64,000 nucleotides of DNA, from NCBI GenBank assembly GCA_963551825.1, contig CAUVHJ010000001.1:25833-89832 (forward strand), given 5' to 3'. The notes beneath the pieces are model-generated. The model was given only the letters and a program-made list of their open reading frames with translations. It had not been told where the DNA came from and made no database searches. Positions 43,768 through 55,462 of this stretch are shown piece by piece (position 1 is the first letter of the stretch; every line of letters starts with the position of its first letter). Source of the stretch: an uncultured Candidatus Saccharibacteria bacterium (lineage in GTDB: Bacteria > Patescibacteriota > Saccharimonadia > Saccharimonadales > Saccharimonadaceae). The translations under genes were made by a program, and so were the position numbers.

Positions 43768-45036
43768 ATGATGTGGTTAGTGAGCCTGATTGGCAAGTGT
43801 TTGGTCTTTCTATCTCGGCACCTGGGCGGCGGTCATGGCTCGGCTTTGCCGGGGCTAGTGGTCGAGAAGCTGTCACCCCACTTTCTCGGGCGATTACTCG
43901 CTAAGCTACCGGAGGGTGTAGTGCTGGTCAGTGGGACTAACGGCAAGACTACTACCACCAAGATCGTTGCCGACCTCCTGAGAGCGGATGGCTACCGGGT
44001 ATTTACGAACCCCAGTGGGAGCAACTTTGCTCGAGGGGTCATCTCGGCGGCTTTGCCGGTCATGCATCGTGGACGATTGGAGGCTGACATCGCAGTGCTG
44101 GAGCTGGACGAAGCTCATGCGACCCACTTCGTAGCGCAGGTTAAACCACGCTACAGCCTGCTGCTCAATGTACTGAGAGATCAGCTTGACCGCTTCGGTG
44201 AGATTGACCAGACAGCTCGGCTGCTCTCGTATGTAGCTGAACAGACTACCGATGTGGTGGTGCTAAATGCTGATGATCCACGGCTAAGTCGGCTGGGTCA
44301 GAGTGATCAGCTAACGGCTCGACCGGCGTGGTTTGGCGCTAGCGGCGAGGCGAGCCGATTGTACCGTACGGACGAAGAGCTGCATACTAGTCAGCGAGCC
44401 AAACGCTCTAAAGGTGCTACTGAGGACGTATTAACTCTGGATAGACTAACCGGTCATCGGGCGCAGTACCTGATCGATGGCAAACGGTATACGACCGAGC
44501 TGCGACTCTTCGGTATCTACAATGCCCTTAACTGTGGAGCAGCCTTGAGTTTGGTGCAAGCGGTCAAGCAGGACCGATTTGATCCACGGCGAGCAGTCAA
44601 GACATTAGCTAAGATTAAACCGGCGTTTGGACGAGGTGAAGAGCTTAGTCTAGCTAATGGGACTGTCCGATTAATCCTAGTCAAAAACCCGAGTGGCTTC
44701 CAATTGAGCCTCGATTCAGCTGAGGTGCAGCCGACTTTGATCGCTATTAACGACCAGTATGCCGATGGCAGAGACGTCTCCTGGCTATGGGACGTAAAGA
44801 TTGACTCACTGAGGCAAGATGAAGTGAGTGTGACAGGCATCCGGGCGTACGATATGGCGCTTCGGTTAGAGTATGATCAAGTGGTGCCCAGGTCAGTCGA
44901 GCCGGATATTGTCGTGGCGACTGAGTCCTTTCTTGATCGACTAGAGGGTGACGGACAGATCTTTGCTACTTATACGGCGATGTTAAAGATCAGACAGCTA
45001 CTCCTAGCTAGGCAGAGCCGGGAGGAAAAACGATGA
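43768..45036 (+). CDS. murT: Lipid II isoglutaminyl synthase, Mur-ligase-like subunit MurT
   Basis: Motifs are SGTNGKTTT, LRDQLDRFGEID and the C-terminal DUF1727-like ADGRDVSWLWD. The gene overlaps gatD by 4 nt. Confidence 0.8.
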   Translation: MMWLVSLIGKCLVFLSRHLGGGHGSALPGLVVEKLSPHFLGRLLAKLPEGVVLVSGTNGKTTTTKIVADLLRADGYRVFTNPSGSNFARGVISAALPVMHRGRLEADIAVLELDEAHATHFVAQVKPRYSLLLNVLRDQLDRFGEIDQTARLLSYVAEQTTDVVVLNADDPRLSRLGQSDQLTARPAWFGASGEASRLYRTDEELHTSQRAKRSKGATEDVLTLDRLTGHRAQYLIDGKRYTTELRLFGIYNALNCGAALSLVQAVKQDRFDPRRAVKTLAKIKPAFGRGEELSLANGTVRLILVKNPSGFQLSLDSAEVQPTLIAINDQYADGRDVSWLWDVKIDSLRQDEVSVTGIRAYDMALRLEYDQVVPRSVEPDIVVATESFLDRLEGDGQIFATYTAMLKIRQLLLARQSREEKR

Positions 45037-45794
45037 AACGACGCCAGCTTAATATCGTCCAGCTGTACCCCGAGCAGATGAATCTTTACGGTGACTACGG
45101 CAATGCCCAGATCATCTGTCGGCGAGCTGAGCTGTATGGTTATCAGGCAAAGCTGACTAGTTACAATTCGGCGCCGGATATGGCTAAACTGGTGAAGGCT
45201 GACCTGATCTTGGGCGGCGGCGGACAGGATTCGGGGCAGAGGGCAATCCTGAGCGACCTGGTGAAGTTAAAGTCTGAGCTACCGGGTATGATAGAGGCCG
45301 GCGTGCCGATGTTGGTTATCTGCGGGCTGTACCAGCTGATGGGTCATTATTTCCAGACCGGCGATGGCGATCGGCTGACGGGGCTGGGTATCTTTGATGC
45401 TGTCACGGTGGCGGGGCAGAAGCGATTGATTGGTAACGCGGTAGTCGATGCCGGCGATGAGCTGGGCGTACTGGTCGGTTATGAAAATCACAGCGGTCGA
45501 ACTGATCTTGGTAAGGAGCAGGCTCCGCTAGGGCGAGTAATCAAGGGCTGGGGCAACGATGGTGCCGGTAGGCTTGAGGGGGCGATCAGGCAGGCGGCGA
45601 TAGGCACGTATCTACATGGTCCGGTACTAGCCAAGAGCCCTCATCTGGCTGATTGGTTGCTGGCTAGAGCGAGCTACCGGCGCTACGGCGAGGCGAAGCT
45701 TGAGCCGGCTGACGGTCATGCCGAGAAGGAGCTGGCTCGTCTGGAGCAACTGTCAGAGCGAGCCCGTCAGATCGCCTTGACCAGACCGCAGTAA
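45033..45794 (+). CDS. gatD: Lipid II isoglutaminyl synthase, glutaminase subunit GatD
   Basis: Motifs are LNIVQLYPEQMNLYGDYGN, the nucleophile elbow ICGLYQL, GYENHSGRT and TYLHGP. Confidence 0.8.
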   Translation: MKRRQLNIVQLYPEQMNLYGDYGNAQIICRRAELYGYQAKLTSYNSAPDMAKLVKADLILGGGGQDSGQRAILSDLVKLKSELPGMIEAGVPMLVICGLYQLMGHYFQTGDGDRLTGLGIFDAVTVAGQKRLIGNAVVDAGDELGVLVGYENHSGRTDLGKEQAPLGRVIKGWGNDGAGRLEGAIRQAAIGTYLHGPVLAKSPHLADWLLARASYRRYGEAKLEPADGHAEKELARLEQLSERARQIALTRPQ

Positions 45795-45802
45795 GCCTAT
45801 GT

Positions 45803-47254
45803 CTAGTTGTGCACCCAGACAGGCGTGCCGATTGATGCCCAGTCGTAGACTCGTTTGGCATCACCGATAAACATGTTGACACAGCCGTGTGAGATGCCTT
45901 GACGGACGTTGCCATTGACGTAGTTCATCCACCAGGCTTCGTGGAAAGCGTAGCCGGACGATTGCCAGAAAGTGATGTAGTGGATGTTGCAGAGAGGCTC
46001 TTTGGCCGGCGGATTGGGCATGCACTGCTGATATACTTTGTACCAGACTCTAAACAAGCCGGTGATAGTCGGAGTAGAGGGCTTACCCTGAGAGGTCTGA
46101 TTTGTCGACCAGACTATGCCATTGCCGGCCCATAGGCGCACTTCATAGGTCGATCGATTGTATTCGATCCAGTGACCGTCTGCTGCTATGTAGGCGTCGG
46201 TCTGGAAGGGCGAATCCTTGGTGGTCATCTCGATTCGTTTACCGGAGCCATCCTTGAGGCCGGCGATGACTTGGTTAGCGATATCGTCGACATTGCTGGC
46301 GGTCTGACCGTTGCGCCCCGGGCGGATTACCTGTAGTACCTGCTTGTTACCATCGGTGATGGCTAGCTGGTTGACCGGTTTATCACTCAGCTCACCGGCA
46401 ACCGTCTCGGTGATGAACTTGGTAATCTTATCTTTATCAAAGGCGATGTCATAGTTTGATGTCGTATGGTTGGGCTGGAACGATGTCCAGTCGGCGATCG
46501 TCCAGGGGTCGATCGTCCAGAGAGTTCGGTCACCGTTAAAAATCTGGATTGATTGGCTGAGCGACTGATTGATCTTATTAGCGGTCTCCTCGGCTGATTT
46601 GTCGCTGATAGTAGGATGGTCATTGACAGTAGTAATCTGATAACTGGTGATCTGGGGTGCCTTGAGGAGTTTTTCGACTTGACGGTATAGGTCAAGCAGC
46701 CGGACTGACTTGCCGACAGTACCGGGCTGAACTCGGTAGCGGTTCTGATCCTTATCGTAGACTAGCTGGGCATCCTTAGGGTCAGTGGTTAACTCGGGGA
46801 AATTAGTATCGACGAAGTGCTTAACCTTCGTTTTATCGTACGAGCCGGCCAGGTCGAAATGCTGATTGTTAAATAAGATGCCTAGTGGATTGTCTCGTCC
46901 GGTCCGGGCGGCTCTCTCAGCGAGCTGTTCGGTCTTGATATCGACTCCCAGGTCTTTGGCGCTAGCGGTGGCAGACTTACCGTCATACTTGAGGCTGAGG
47001 CGGATATTCTTAGTCAAGTTATGGATGATAGCAGTGATCTGCTCTTTAGTGCGCCCGCCAACCTTGACGTTAGCGATAGTGACGCCGGGAGCCGCCTTGT
47101 CCCGGTAGAAAGTCAGAGAGAAGACGACCGAGCCTAGGCAGAAGATCAGAATGATGCCGAGGATAACACTCAGGACAAGGTGGCGCCGCAACCAACCGGA
47201 CAACCCGGTCATTTTTAGCTTGGCTATTCTGGCTTTATTTTTTAGCTTATCCAC
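45803..47254 (-). CDS. L,D-transpeptidase (YkuD domain) with an N-terminal TM anchor and a large pre-domain
   Basis: The TM helix is LVLSVILGIILIFCLGSVVFSL. The C-terminal YkuD catalytic motif is GISHGCVNM. Confidence 0.8.
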   Translation of the reverse strand: MDKLKNKARIAKLKMTGLSGWLRRHLVLSVILGIILIFCLGSVVFSLTFYRDKAAPGVTIANVKVGGRTKEQITAIIHNLTKNIRLSLKYDGKSATASAKDLGVDIKTEQLAERAARTGRDNPLGILFNNQHFDLAGSYDKTKVKHFVDTNFPELTTDPKDAQLVYDKDQNRYRVQPGTVGKSVRLLDLYRQVEKLLKAPQITSYQITTVNDHPTISDKSAEETANKINQSLSQSIQIFNGDRTLWTIDPWTIADWTSFQPNHTTSNYDIAFDKDKITKFITETVAGELSDKPVNQLAITDGNKQVLQVIRPGRNGQTASNVDDIANQVIAGLKDGSGKRIEMTTKDSPFQTDAYIAADGHWIEYNRSTYEVRLWAGNGIVWSTNQTSQGKPSTPTITGLFRVWYKVYQQCMPNPPAKEPLCNIHYITFWQSSGYAFHEAWWMNYVNGNVRQGISHGCVNMFIGDAKRVYDWASIGTPVWVHN

Positions 47255-53114: not shown

Positions 53115-53176
53115 ACATGGGGCGTCTGACAGGATTCGAAGGCTTCTTTGCTGGCGCAAAGTCGCAGGTTCAGCCT
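53115..53176. repeat. 62-nt repeat, copy 1, beginning with a pseudo-copy of the tRNA-His 3' end
   Basis: Positions 53116..53140 equal 53334..53358, which cover the tRNA-His 3' 23 nt plus 2 flanking nt. The remaining 36 nt are unrelated to the tRNA and identical in copy 2. Confidence 0.85.
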
Positions 53177-53224
53177 TAGGCGTCAACAAGCCTTTTCTTA
53201 AAAATAATACCTATCGCATCAATC

Positions 53225-53286
53225 ACATGGGGCGTCTGACAGGATTCGAAGGCTTCTTTGCTGGCGCAAAGTCGCAGGTTCAGCCT
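53225..53286. repeat. 62-nt repeat, copy 2 (100 percent identical to copy 1)
   Basis: The sequence is identical to 53115..53176. The period is 110 nt, and the genuine tRNA end follows 108 nt later. Confidence 0.85.
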
Positions 53287-53335
53287 GGGGAGTTTATAAG
53301 ACCTTCGTCGTTCGGACGTAACTGTAATAATCGCA

Positions 53336-53413
53336 TGGGGCGTCTGACAGGATTCGAACCTGCGACCTCCGGAGCCACAATCCAGCGCTCTAACCAGCTG
53401 AGCTACAAACGCC
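53336..53413 (-). tRNA. tRNA-His (anticodon GUG) with encoded G-1 and CCA
   Basis: The reverse complement folds with G-1, acceptor GCGTTTG/CAGACGC, discriminator C, anticodon stem CTGGA/TCCGG with loop TTGTGGC, and T arm GCAGG TTCGAAT CCTGT. Confidence 0.9.
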
Positions 53414-53431
53414 ACGCACAGGTATTATATA

Positions 53432-54964
53432 TCAAATCTCACGGAAAGTCTCAATCTGCGCTCCGAGGGAGTTCAGCCGGTCGTAAAAATCTTGGTAGCC
53501 TCGGTTGATATTGTAGACATCACGCAGCGTCGATGTACCCGGTGTGGCCAGCATAGCCAGCAGGATTACCACGCTGGGTCTCAGAGCCGGTGGGGCGACT
53601 ACATCGGCAGCTCGCCAATGTGTCGGACCGGTGATATAGACTCGGTGCGGATCAACCAGCTCGACTTGAGCGTTGAGGCGATTTAGCTCAGTCAGATAGA
53701 TTGAGCGGTTCTCGTACGCCCAGTCGTGGATCAGGGTGCGTCCTCGGGCAACGGTGGCTGCTAATGCCATGAAGGGTAGATTGTCCAGATTGATACCGGG
53801 GAAGGGTAGAGCGGTGATCTTGTCGGTGGGGGCGACCAGCTGAGATTTTCGGACGGTGACATCAACCAGCCTGGTTTTGCCATTGGTTGATAGATAGACG
53901 GGTGACTGCTGATAATCTAGCCCCATCTGCCCGAGCGTGGCAAGCTCTAGCTCAAGGAACTCGACGGGGCAGCGACGGACGGTGATATTTGACCCGGTGA
54001 TGATGCCGGCAGTGATAAAGCTCATAGCTTCGATCGGGTCTTCGCTGACCTGATATTCGACATTTTGATTGATCTGCTTGACGCCTTTGATGGTCAGGAC
54101 GGTAGTGCCGATACCGTCAATCTGAACGCCGAGCTTTTGTAGGAAGAAGCAAATATCCTGCACCATATAGTTAGGACTGGCGTTGCGGATCACCGTGGTA
54201 GCGGGGCAAAGTGCCGCTGCCATGATCACGTTCTCAGTCGCAGTGTCACCTCGCTCGATCAGGATGATGTCTTTATCAGGCTGTCGAGGTCGGACAGTGG
54301 CGTGGTAGCAGGTGGCACTGGCGGGTACATCAACGTTCATGCCGAAGGCGCTCAGCCCGACCAGGTGAGGCTTGACTGTGCGCACACCTAGCGAGCAACC
54401 CCCGGCGAAAGGCAGGCGAAAATCATTACACTGGTGAAGCAGCGGTCCGAGAAACATCAGGATGGAGCGAGTCCGCTTGGCGGCGGCTGTGTCCATCCGG
54501 TCTAACTGTAGCTGAGTCGGAGGGCAGATCTCCAGGTCGTTTTGGCGATTGAGCCATTTGGTCTTGACGCCGATGGAGTTGAGTACCTCAATGATGCGGT
54601 TGACTTCTTCGATCCTAGCCACCCGACGCAAGACAGTCTTGCCCTTATTAAGGAGTGAGGCGCAAAGCAAGCCGACTCCGGCGTTTTTACTGGTATTAAC
54701 TGAGATGCTACCATTTAGCTGATTGCCACCGTGGATGCGTAGGCTAAGCTTGCTGGAGCTACTGAGGCTGATAATCTCGCTATTGAGTACTCCTGAGATG
54801 CGAGCGATTAGCTCCAGGCTGATATTTTGCGCCCCTTTTTCGATCCGATTGATGGCTGATTGAGAAGTGCCGAGCTCATCAGCCAGCTGAGCCTGAGTCA
54901 GACCACGGTTGATCCGTAGTTCAGCGATCAGCTTACCGATCTTAACACGGTAGTCGTAAGGCAT
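53432..54964 (-). CDS. murA: XRE-family HTH domain fused to UDP-N-acetylglucosamine 1-carboxyvinyltransferase (MurA)
   Basis: The N-terminus is IGKLIAELRINRGLTQAQLADELGTSQSAINRIEKGAQNISLELI (HTH_3-like). The MurA body has SKNAG (Lys22 equivalent), FAGGCSLGVRTVKPH (Cys115 equivalent), SEDPIE, ALRPS and the C-terminus INRGYQDFYDRLNSLGAQIE. Confidence 0.8.
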   Translation of the reverse strand: MPYDYRVKIGKLIAELRINRGLTQAQLADELGTSQSAINRIEKGAQNISLELIARISGVLNSEIISLSSSSKLSLRIHGGNQLNGSISVNTSKNAGVGLLCASLLNKGKTVLRRVARIEEVNRIIEVLNSIGVKTKWLNRQNDLEICPPTQLQLDRMDTAAAKRTRSILMFLGPLLHQCNDFRLPFAGGCSLGVRTVKPHLVGLSAFGMNVDVPASATCYHATVRPRQPDKDIILIERGDTATENVIMAAALCPATTVIRNASPNYMVQDICFFLQKLGVQIDGIGTTVLTIKGVKQINQNVEYQVSEDPIEAMSFITAGIITGSNITVRRCPVEFLELELATLGQMGLDYQQSPVYLSTNGKTRLVDVTVRKSQLVAPTDKITALPFPGINLDNLPFMALAATVARGRTLIHDWAYENRSIYLTELNRLNAQVELVDPHRVYITGPTHWRAADVVAPPALRPSVVILLAMLATPGTSTLRDVYNINRGYQDFYDRLNSLGAQIETFREI

Positions 54965-54976
54965 AGCACTAGTATC

Positions 54977-54996
54977 TTATATCACATGTGATATAA
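54977..54996. promoter_or_regulatory. 20-bp perfect palindrome ttatatcacatgtgatataa overlapping the HTH-murA -10 region (candidate operator)
   Basis: The inverted repeat is perfect and lies 12 nt upstream of the start codon. Each half reads TGaTATAAg, which resembles an extended -10. Confidence 0.5.
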
Positions 54997-55009
54997 AGGC
55001 AATTAGGCG

Positions 55010-55462
55010 CTAGCTGTCAAGGCGCCGACCGGGCAAGTGTAGGGTAGGACATAGGGTGGCGAGCAGAGACAGCAGGGTGCTGCCCATGGCTAGTTGAGTG
55101 CCCACGCCTAGCTGACCGAAACGACCGAAGATATCGCCCGGGCCGAAGGAGTTGTAGCTTAGCCACAAGTAGACGATGAGAACGACCAGTAGAGTGCCGA
55201 CTAGCCCGACCAACTTAGAGCCGAGAGTAGCTGAGACGAGCAGGACAATGGCTAGGACGAAGATGACCGGCGCCATATGGATGGAATTGAGCAGCTCGAC
55301 GTCCAGAGTGACAGATCCGCCGGATAGATTGTGGATGGCGCTGGATAGTAAGCGTCCAAAGCTGGTATCGGCCGGTAGCTGACCATTGATCCAGGTCATC
55401 TGGCTGCTGCAGAGAAGCAGTATGCCTGCTACCATCATCATTAATCGTCGAAGTGATTTCAT
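55010..55462 (-). CDS. Small polytopic membrane protein, hypothetical
   Basis: The product has 4 hydrophobic segments (MMMVAGILLLCSSQ, MAPVIFVLAIVLLVSATLG, LVGLVGTLLVVLIVYLWL, LAMGSTLLSLLATL). Confidence 0.45.
   Translation of the reverse strand: MKSLRRLMMMVAGILLLCSSQMTWINGQLPADTSFGRLLSSAIHNLSGGSVTLDVELLNSIHMAPVIFVLAIVLLVSATLGSKLVGLVGTLLVVLIVYLWLSYNSFGPGDIFGRFGQLGVGTQLAMGSTLLSLLATLCPTLHLPGRRLDS

Follow-up and report, generated by a model that had tools for sequence, protein, structure and literature searches.

HTH-MurA fusion proteins of Saccharibacteria and Actinomycetota and a conserved palindrome in their own promoter: a probable case of negative autoregulation

The HTH-MurA gene and its promoter

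The sequence analyzed here (the window) is a stretch of 64,000 nucleotides from an uncultured oral member of Candidatus Saccharibacteria. Its minus strand carries, at 53432..54964, a gene for an HTH_3::MurA fusion protein (HTH-MurA) of 510 amino acids plus a stop codon. Upstream lies a gene for a predicted membrane protein of 150 aa without a Pfam match (55010..55462, minus strand), with 45 nt between its end and murA; its presence at this position is conserved across the genus, including at loci that carry a reduced form of the fusion, HTH-deltaMurA, described below. A tRNA-His gene (53336..53412) lies 20 nt past the murA stop codon, and the 3′ end of this tRNA gene is repeated downstream in the manner of att scars (53115..53413).

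The N-terminal XRE-type HTH_3 domain (aa 13–63; 54776..54928, minus strand), a DNA-binding domain of the phage-repressor kind, was identified by Pfam with an E value of 4e-14 and 52.7 bits (cut-off 23), and its recognition-helix region, TSQSAINRIEK (aa 33–43; 54836..54868, minus strand), is near-invariant in all operator-bearing fused proteins. A Ser-rich flexible linker (aa 61–72; 54749..54784, minus strand), with pLDDT values <50 at aa 66–71, leads to the MurA (UDP-GlcNAc enolpyruvyl transferase) domain at aa 75–507 (53444..54742, minus strand), which was delimited from NCBIfam, solved relatives, alignment and an AF2 model. Pfam placed the EPSP_synthase domain at aa 78–497 (E 7e-42). The NCBIfam MurA subfamily model NF006873 matched aa 74–507 with 329.6 bits, above its cut-off of 297, and the equivalog model TIGR01072 gave the window protein a score of 310, under its cut-off of 392.7. 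The top solved relatives were all MurA (E 1e-54).

An alignment of 36 sequences, from 28 fused proteins and 8 close relatives without the fusion, showed that K93 (in SKNAG; codon 54686..54688, minus strand), C190 (GGCSLG; codon 54395..54397, minus strand), D309 (EDPIE) and R462 (ALRPS) are invariant, as are N94, R195, D394 and R420. Mapping through conserved motifs, we take K93, N94, C190, R195, D309, D394 and R462 to be the equivalents of K22, N23, C115, R120, D305, D369 and R397 of E. coli MurA, respectively. The AF2 model built from the 36-row alignment (mean pLDDT 90) displayed helices at aa 5–19, 24–31, 35–42 and 50–60, which form a four-helix HTH bundle (aa 5–60), followed by a disordered linker (aa 61–72) and a complete two-lobed MurA with a flexible Cys190 loop. 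Within the genus, the MurA part and the HTH alike are under strong purifying selection (pN ~0.11, pS saturated), with a dN/dS of ~0.04 over the entire MurA domain. When the best 120 relatives in the database were surveyed for domain architecture, both domains were present in 120/120, at a length of ~510 aa.

An in-frame TAA lies four codons 5′ of the ATG, and the next in-frame ATG, GTG or TTG after the start is found only past the codon for the catalytic K93; an HTH-less MurA is therefore not translatable from this gene. The genome (835 kb, 98.5% complete) yielded a single PF00275 match, HTH-MurA itself. Enzyme and DNA-binding domain are thus in one polypeptide and cannot be made separately, which is one of the criteria for a trigger enzyme. 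We consider it likely that the ORF encodes such a bifunctional protein, a full-length MurA linked flexibly to an N-terminal XRE-type HTH, with both enolpyruvyl transfer and DNA binding being inferred.

These results bear on an earlier note made from the sequence alone. Its reading of an N-terminal HTH_3 domain followed by a full-length MurA held (Pfam, NCBIfam, solved relatives), as did its statement that the catalytic Lys, Cys, Asp and Arg are retained, all of them being invariant in the 36 sequences. It had also raised the possibilities that the true start codon lies downstream of the HTH, which cannot be the case, and that a second, unfused murA exists, of which there is none among PF00275 homologues in this genome.

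Two further observations of the note, a perfect 20-bp palindrome 12 nt upstream of the start codon and its overlap with a −10-like element, were likewise confirmed. The palindrome, TTATATCACATGTGATATAA, occupies 54977..54996, 12 nt 5′ of the ATG at 54964. Its core is a predicted 18-bp operator, TATATCACATGTGATATA (54978..54995, no strand assigned), which is unique in the genome, with no second match at ≤3 mismatches across the 835 kb. The motif TATAYC-N6-GRTATA also occurs only once in the window genome; another site (G000:C7:3742) has a spacing of 7 nt, not 6 nt. A genome-wide search for the half-site TGTGATATAA, which the note had proposed, returned two further intergenic sites, where it is a plain extended −10 (TGnTATAAT-type) without the left arm, and these were rejected as regulon members. 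Because the half-site recurs as an ordinary −10, its count is uninformative; the full palindrome is still unique.

Reading from the sequence, we placed a candidate −35, TTGCCT (54997..55002, minus strand), 1 nt 5′ of the operator, in the same geometry as the TTGACA or TTGACT of other genera. A 17-nt spacer separates it from a candidate −10, TAAGAT (54974..54979, minus strand), and the alternative is the extended −10 named in the earlier note, TGaTATAAG (54976..54984, minus strand). With either −10 candidate, there is overlap with the operator’s right arm; the operator fills the −35/−10 spacer, and this arm alone is a good extended −10. The transcript is predicted to start within a few nucleotides of the ATG, giving a leaderless-like mRNA with no SD. 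The murA promoter was not called in a consensus promoter/terminator scan because its −35 is weak.

Distribution, loss and transfer of the operator

In a first scan, one ~4.5-kb locus was taken per lineage, giving 29 fused and 11 closely related unfused loci. The best TATAYC-N6-GRTATA match of the whole locus lay directly 5′ of the start codon in 26/29 fused loci, and 0/11 unfused relatives had a match at ≤3 mismatches inside the 80 nt upstream. A generic inverted-repeat finder applied to the upstream regions returned mostly terminators of the upstream genes, and was replaced by this motif-specific scan. In the G171 genome, too, the motif is found once, at murA.

For a pooled set of 69 proteins, the motif was widened post hoc to TATMYC-N6-GRKATA to admit an actinomycete variant. 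All proteins with the helix SQSA[IV][NAH]R[IMV]E (57/57) had an operator within 70 nt upstream, and it was absent in 12/12 proteins without the canonical helix, these being either unfused or diverged in the helix. The association of helix and operator is perfect but not statistically independent, with only 2–3 phylogenetically independent contrasts (sign test p 0.5). Among the 57 fused loci, the 18-bp operator has the consensus TATATCATATnTGATATA; it ends 8–13 nt 5′ of the ATG in 47/57, is preceded at 0–3 nt by a −35-like (TTGACA-like) hexamer in 29/57, and has a TAnnnT beginning at its final TA in 37/57. The operator is conserved over many Saccharibacteria families and Actinomycetota, always in the promoter spacer. 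What these data show is the fusion architecture, the sole copy, where the operator lies, that it is unique and deeply conserved, and that it strictly co-occurs with the helix. The earlier note had asked for the palindrome to be looked for at orthologous loci and for the architecture to be surveyed in databases; the palindrome is conserved in both groups, and the fusion is widespread in Saccharibacteria and also found in Actinomycetota.

The module has been lost in places. In family f29, some MurA proteins lack the HTH (L047, L049–L051), while in others (L046, L048) the HTH is kept and its recognition helix has diverged, and no operator was found at any of these HTH-less or diverged loci (L046–L051); the HTH/operator module appears to be decaying in this family. 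In the genus members G005, G017, G007 and G022, a syntenic ORF of ~200 aa replaces the full HTH-MurA. This HTH-deltaMurA, of 218 aa in G005 and G017 (syntenic ORFs at L061, 1614..2270, minus strand, and L062, 1773..2429, plus strand), combines an HTH that has the canonical helix with a rapidly diverging remnant and a conserved stretch of the ~35 C-terminal residues of MurA; its ORF shares 4 nt with the membrane-protein gene upstream. Despite the canonical helix, no operator was found at the HTH-deltaMurA loci. A subclade reduced to a 218-aa HTH plus MurA remnant without operator is a new observation of this work. Perfect motif matches elsewhere in G005, G007 and G017 were dismissed as chance, those checked falling within the coding sequences of PBP or UvrB, and a perfect match in G022 is intergenic with no identified gene adjoining. 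Only two Mur-ligase matches each were present in G005, G017 and G007, corresponding in G005 to MurE and MurF.

An additional site was seen in G023, a genome encoding a MurA with 83% identity to that of the window. This genome has a second exact copy of its 18-mer operator on the promoter of an unrelated gene, with different flanks (L066 1514..1531; G023:C1:272713). Downstream of this copy come TATAAT and a 35-nt leader that contains AAAGGAG, and then an orphan ORF of 150 aa with no Pfam match and no homologue in the window genome. From this second copy, we concluded that the regulon can exceed one gene; the orphan gene may be one such additional member.

The same fusion was found in complete Streptomyces chromosomes and in Nocardioides, Kribbella, Actinopolymorpha, Actinocatenispora and Jatrophihabitans (one genome per species), with 65–68% identity across the N-terminal 139 aa, and HTH_3+EPSP_synthase clusters in a protein atlas were dominated by Actinomycetota. 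At these loci, of ~70% G+C, the operator reads (T/C)ATCTCA-N4-TGAGATA, ends 10–11 nt 5′ of the ATG, and shares just its last TA with a TAnnnT −10. In a maximum-likelihood tree from a quick search, rooted on typical CPR MurA and without bootstrap or topology test, the 17 actinomycete rows formed one clade (SH-aLRT 100) inside a Saccharibacteria clade (SH-aLRT 99) that includes the window protein. This nesting makes it likely that the transfer ran from Saccharibacteria to Actinomycetota, and, as the operator has been kept in the actinomycetes, gene and operator moved together. Co-transfer of operator and HTH into a foreign regulatory background is what would be expected of a self-contained module of regulator plus site, and the nested phylogeny is a record of genes passing from the epibionts into their hosts’ phylum. 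Separately, a hit named ‘Streptomyces caniscabiei’ (P0069; 70% identity, on a 957-kb contig) could possibly be a Saccharibacteria contig.

MurB and MurC in the genus

No MurB was detected in the window genome by PF02873, by TIGR00179, or by tblastn with the MurB of a sister genus, and PF02873 found MurB in 0/41 genomes of the genus. Three sub-threshold MurB_C matches in the genus were spurious, being located inside DNA polymerase I, and the sole FAD_binding_4 protein of the window genome was rejected as a MurB candidate, as it is a GlcD/D-lactate-dehydrogenase-type oxidase. Across the order, MurB was present in 56/61 genomes sampled, usually 2–4 kb from murA; one of the genomes counted, G254, is unpublished, and leaving it out gives 55/60. 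MurC was not found in the genus either, where searches gave solely cross-hits from other Mur ligases; in sister genera, MurC scored 243 bits, or 158+105 bits. The window genome encodes MurD, MurE, MurF, MraY, MurT/GatD and an L,D-transpeptidase. The genes for MurT/GatD and the L,D-transpeptidase lie together (murT, 43768..45036; gatD, 45033..45794; L,D-transpeptidase, 45803..47254, minus strand), an arrangement suggestive of lipid II amidation as well as 3-3 cross-linking.

A pathway-context test for MurA, namely the presence of MurB and MurC to use its product, is therefore not met in the genus. That a genus without detectable MurB or MurC has kept HTH-MurA under strong purifying selection is, to our reading, new here. 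The cytoplasmic precursor pathway seems to be eroding from the top, with MurA having nonetheless long outlived MurB and MurC. The earlier note had suggested that the fusion would directly couple wall-precursor synthesis to transcription; without MurB and MurC, this coupling is less straightforward in the genus than in most relatives. The gap also raises the question of where UDP-MurNAc-peptide comes from.

Autorepression, its alternatives and its meaning

Our preferred reading is that HTH-MurA represses its own gene, to which we assign a probability of roughly 0.75. In this model, a dimer of two HTH domains would sit on the 18-bp palindrome in the −35/−10 spacer of the gene’s own near-leaderless promoter and exclude RNA polymerase, such that the level of MurA limits its own synthesis. 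This autorepression by a dimeric HTH had been put forward in the earlier note, and the comparison of relatives supports it; DNA binding, dimerisation and repression all remain inferred, as there are no binding or expression data. Against it stand several points. HTH-deltaMurA keeps a canonical helix without an operator at its own locus; the promoter escaped the consensus scan, and the right arm of the operator is an extended −10 that was seen at two other promoters. MurA is, moreover, usually monomeric, which counts against simple HTH dimerisation. With neither MurB nor MurC found in the window’s genus, it is also questionable which flux the enzyme would serve there.

We can also speculate that DNA binding responds to occupancy of the MurA domain by UDP-GlcNAc, PEP or UDP-MurNAc, much as that of BirA responds to its corepressor. 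MurA undergoes open/closed transitions and binds UDP-MurNAc tightly, and this is the basis of the idea. In a bolder reading, which is possible and for which ligand gating is speculation only, HTH-MurA would be a metabolite-gated repressor and a sensor-enzyme that outlived MurB and MurC in the genus: the open or closed state of MurA, set by which of these ligands is bound, would decide whether the HTH pair binds, and the precursor pool would feed back on transcription. If this were true, the cells would have to import late precursors from their actinomycete host or else convert enolpyruvyl-UDP-GlcNAc into UDP-MurNAc-L-Ala by a route not yet known.

Three other explanations deserve consideration. 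The HTH might serve as a protein-protein module, as the RodZ HTH does with MreB, leaving the palindrome to another regulator or to the promoter only. XRE HTH domains of cell-wall proteins can indeed be non-DNA-binding, as in RodZ; the coincidence of the operator’s right arm with an extended −10, and the HTH-deltaMurA proteins that hold the helix without a nearby operator, would fit this view as well. We nevertheless regard it as unlikely, given that helix and operator co-occur perfectly and were lost jointly in L046 and L048, that the operator persisted after transfer to Actinomycetota, whose host regulators differ, and that its left arm is conserved inside the promoter spacer. Nor do we favor the idea that the palindrome is a mere symmetric or bidirectional promoter with no repressor, a caveat raised in the earlier note. 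It rests on the resemblance of both halves to TGnTATAAT and is fair for the half-site, but not for the full palindrome: the gene upstream runs in the same direction, which removes any need for a divergent promoter; the actinomycete arms (TATCTCA) are not −10-like, with just the last TA overlapping the −10; the motif is absent from unfused relatives; and the conserved left arm lies in the −35/−10 spacer, where promoters have no conserved sequence. We find this explanation very unlikely.

The remaining alternative is that the MurA domain has become non-enzymatic in the genus and acts as the ligand sensor of a transcription factor, comparable to the shikimate-kinase-like domain of BzdR. In its favor, neither MurB nor MurC was found in the 41 genus genomes (with MurB in 56/61 genomes of the order), and one subclade deleted the catalytic core yet kept the HTH. 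On the other hand, the catalytic residues are all invariant and dN/dS is ~0.04 over the MurA domain in the genus; the window genome’s sole operator is at the gene’s own promoter, meaning that a pure regulator would control only itself; and MurD, MurE, MurF, MraY and MurT/GatD are present. This explanation, too, appears improbable, and autorepression by an active HTH-MurA remains the reading we prefer.

Known systems provide partial parallels. The E. coli biotin protein ligase/bio-operon repressor BirA, as well as PutA and NadR, also join an N-terminal DNA-binding domain to an active metabolic enzyme and have a palindromic operator overlapping the promoter; among them, PutA is in addition a repressor of its own gene. 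These proteins use winged-helix or ribbon-helix-helix domains, however, whereas HTH-MurA has an XRE/Cro-type HTH and its enzyme is MurA; a further difference is that its only predicted target in the window genome is its own promoter, and ligand control has not been shown. BzdR resembles it in joining an enzyme-fold domain to an XRE-type HTH, and the HTH of HTH-MurA weakly matches the BzdR model NF006015, but in BzdR the enzyme-like part is a sensor without catalytic function, while HTH-MurA retains all catalytic residues. RodZ shares the presence of an XRE HTH on a peptidoglycan-related protein and differs in that this HTH binds MreB, not DNA, with no conserved operator alongside. Compared with canonical MurA (EC 2.5.1.7; PDB 3R38, 1UAE, 1NAW), HTH-MurA has the same full-length two-domain fold, the catalytic Lys, Cys, Asp and Arg, and the status of sole copy. 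It differs in its ~70 extra N-terminal residues (HTH plus linker), in belonging to a divergent clade with 30–36% identity to typical CPR MurA and under the TIGR01072 cut-off, and in that MurB and MurC are missing from the window’s genus.

The closest parallel is the HTH-MurA of Streptomyces and other Actinomycetota, with the same fusion, the same recognition helix and an operator 10–11 nt 5′ of the ATG, the half-site being TATCTCA there and TATA(T/C)CA in Saccharibacteria. We take the Streptomyces protein to be probably murA2, e.g., SCO5998. S. coelicolor has a second MurA enzyme besides MurA2 (PMC12161575), whereas the fusion is the sole MurA of the window genome. In the literature searched, we found no description of the HTH-MurA fusion, its operator or its control circuit, and the only paper we found naming SCO5998/MurA2 mentions no HTH.

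MurA starts cell-wall precursor synthesis, and the control of MurA known to date is post-translational, through ClpCP proteolysis and kinase-dependent inhibition in Firmicutes (PMC12077105). HTH-MurA spans both the Saccharibacteria, tiny epibionts that have few regulators, and Streptomyces and its relatives, in which genetic tests are feasible at once. If our reading is true, a MurA that reads DNA and represses itself would represent a novel, highly compact type of wall-synthesis homeostasis.
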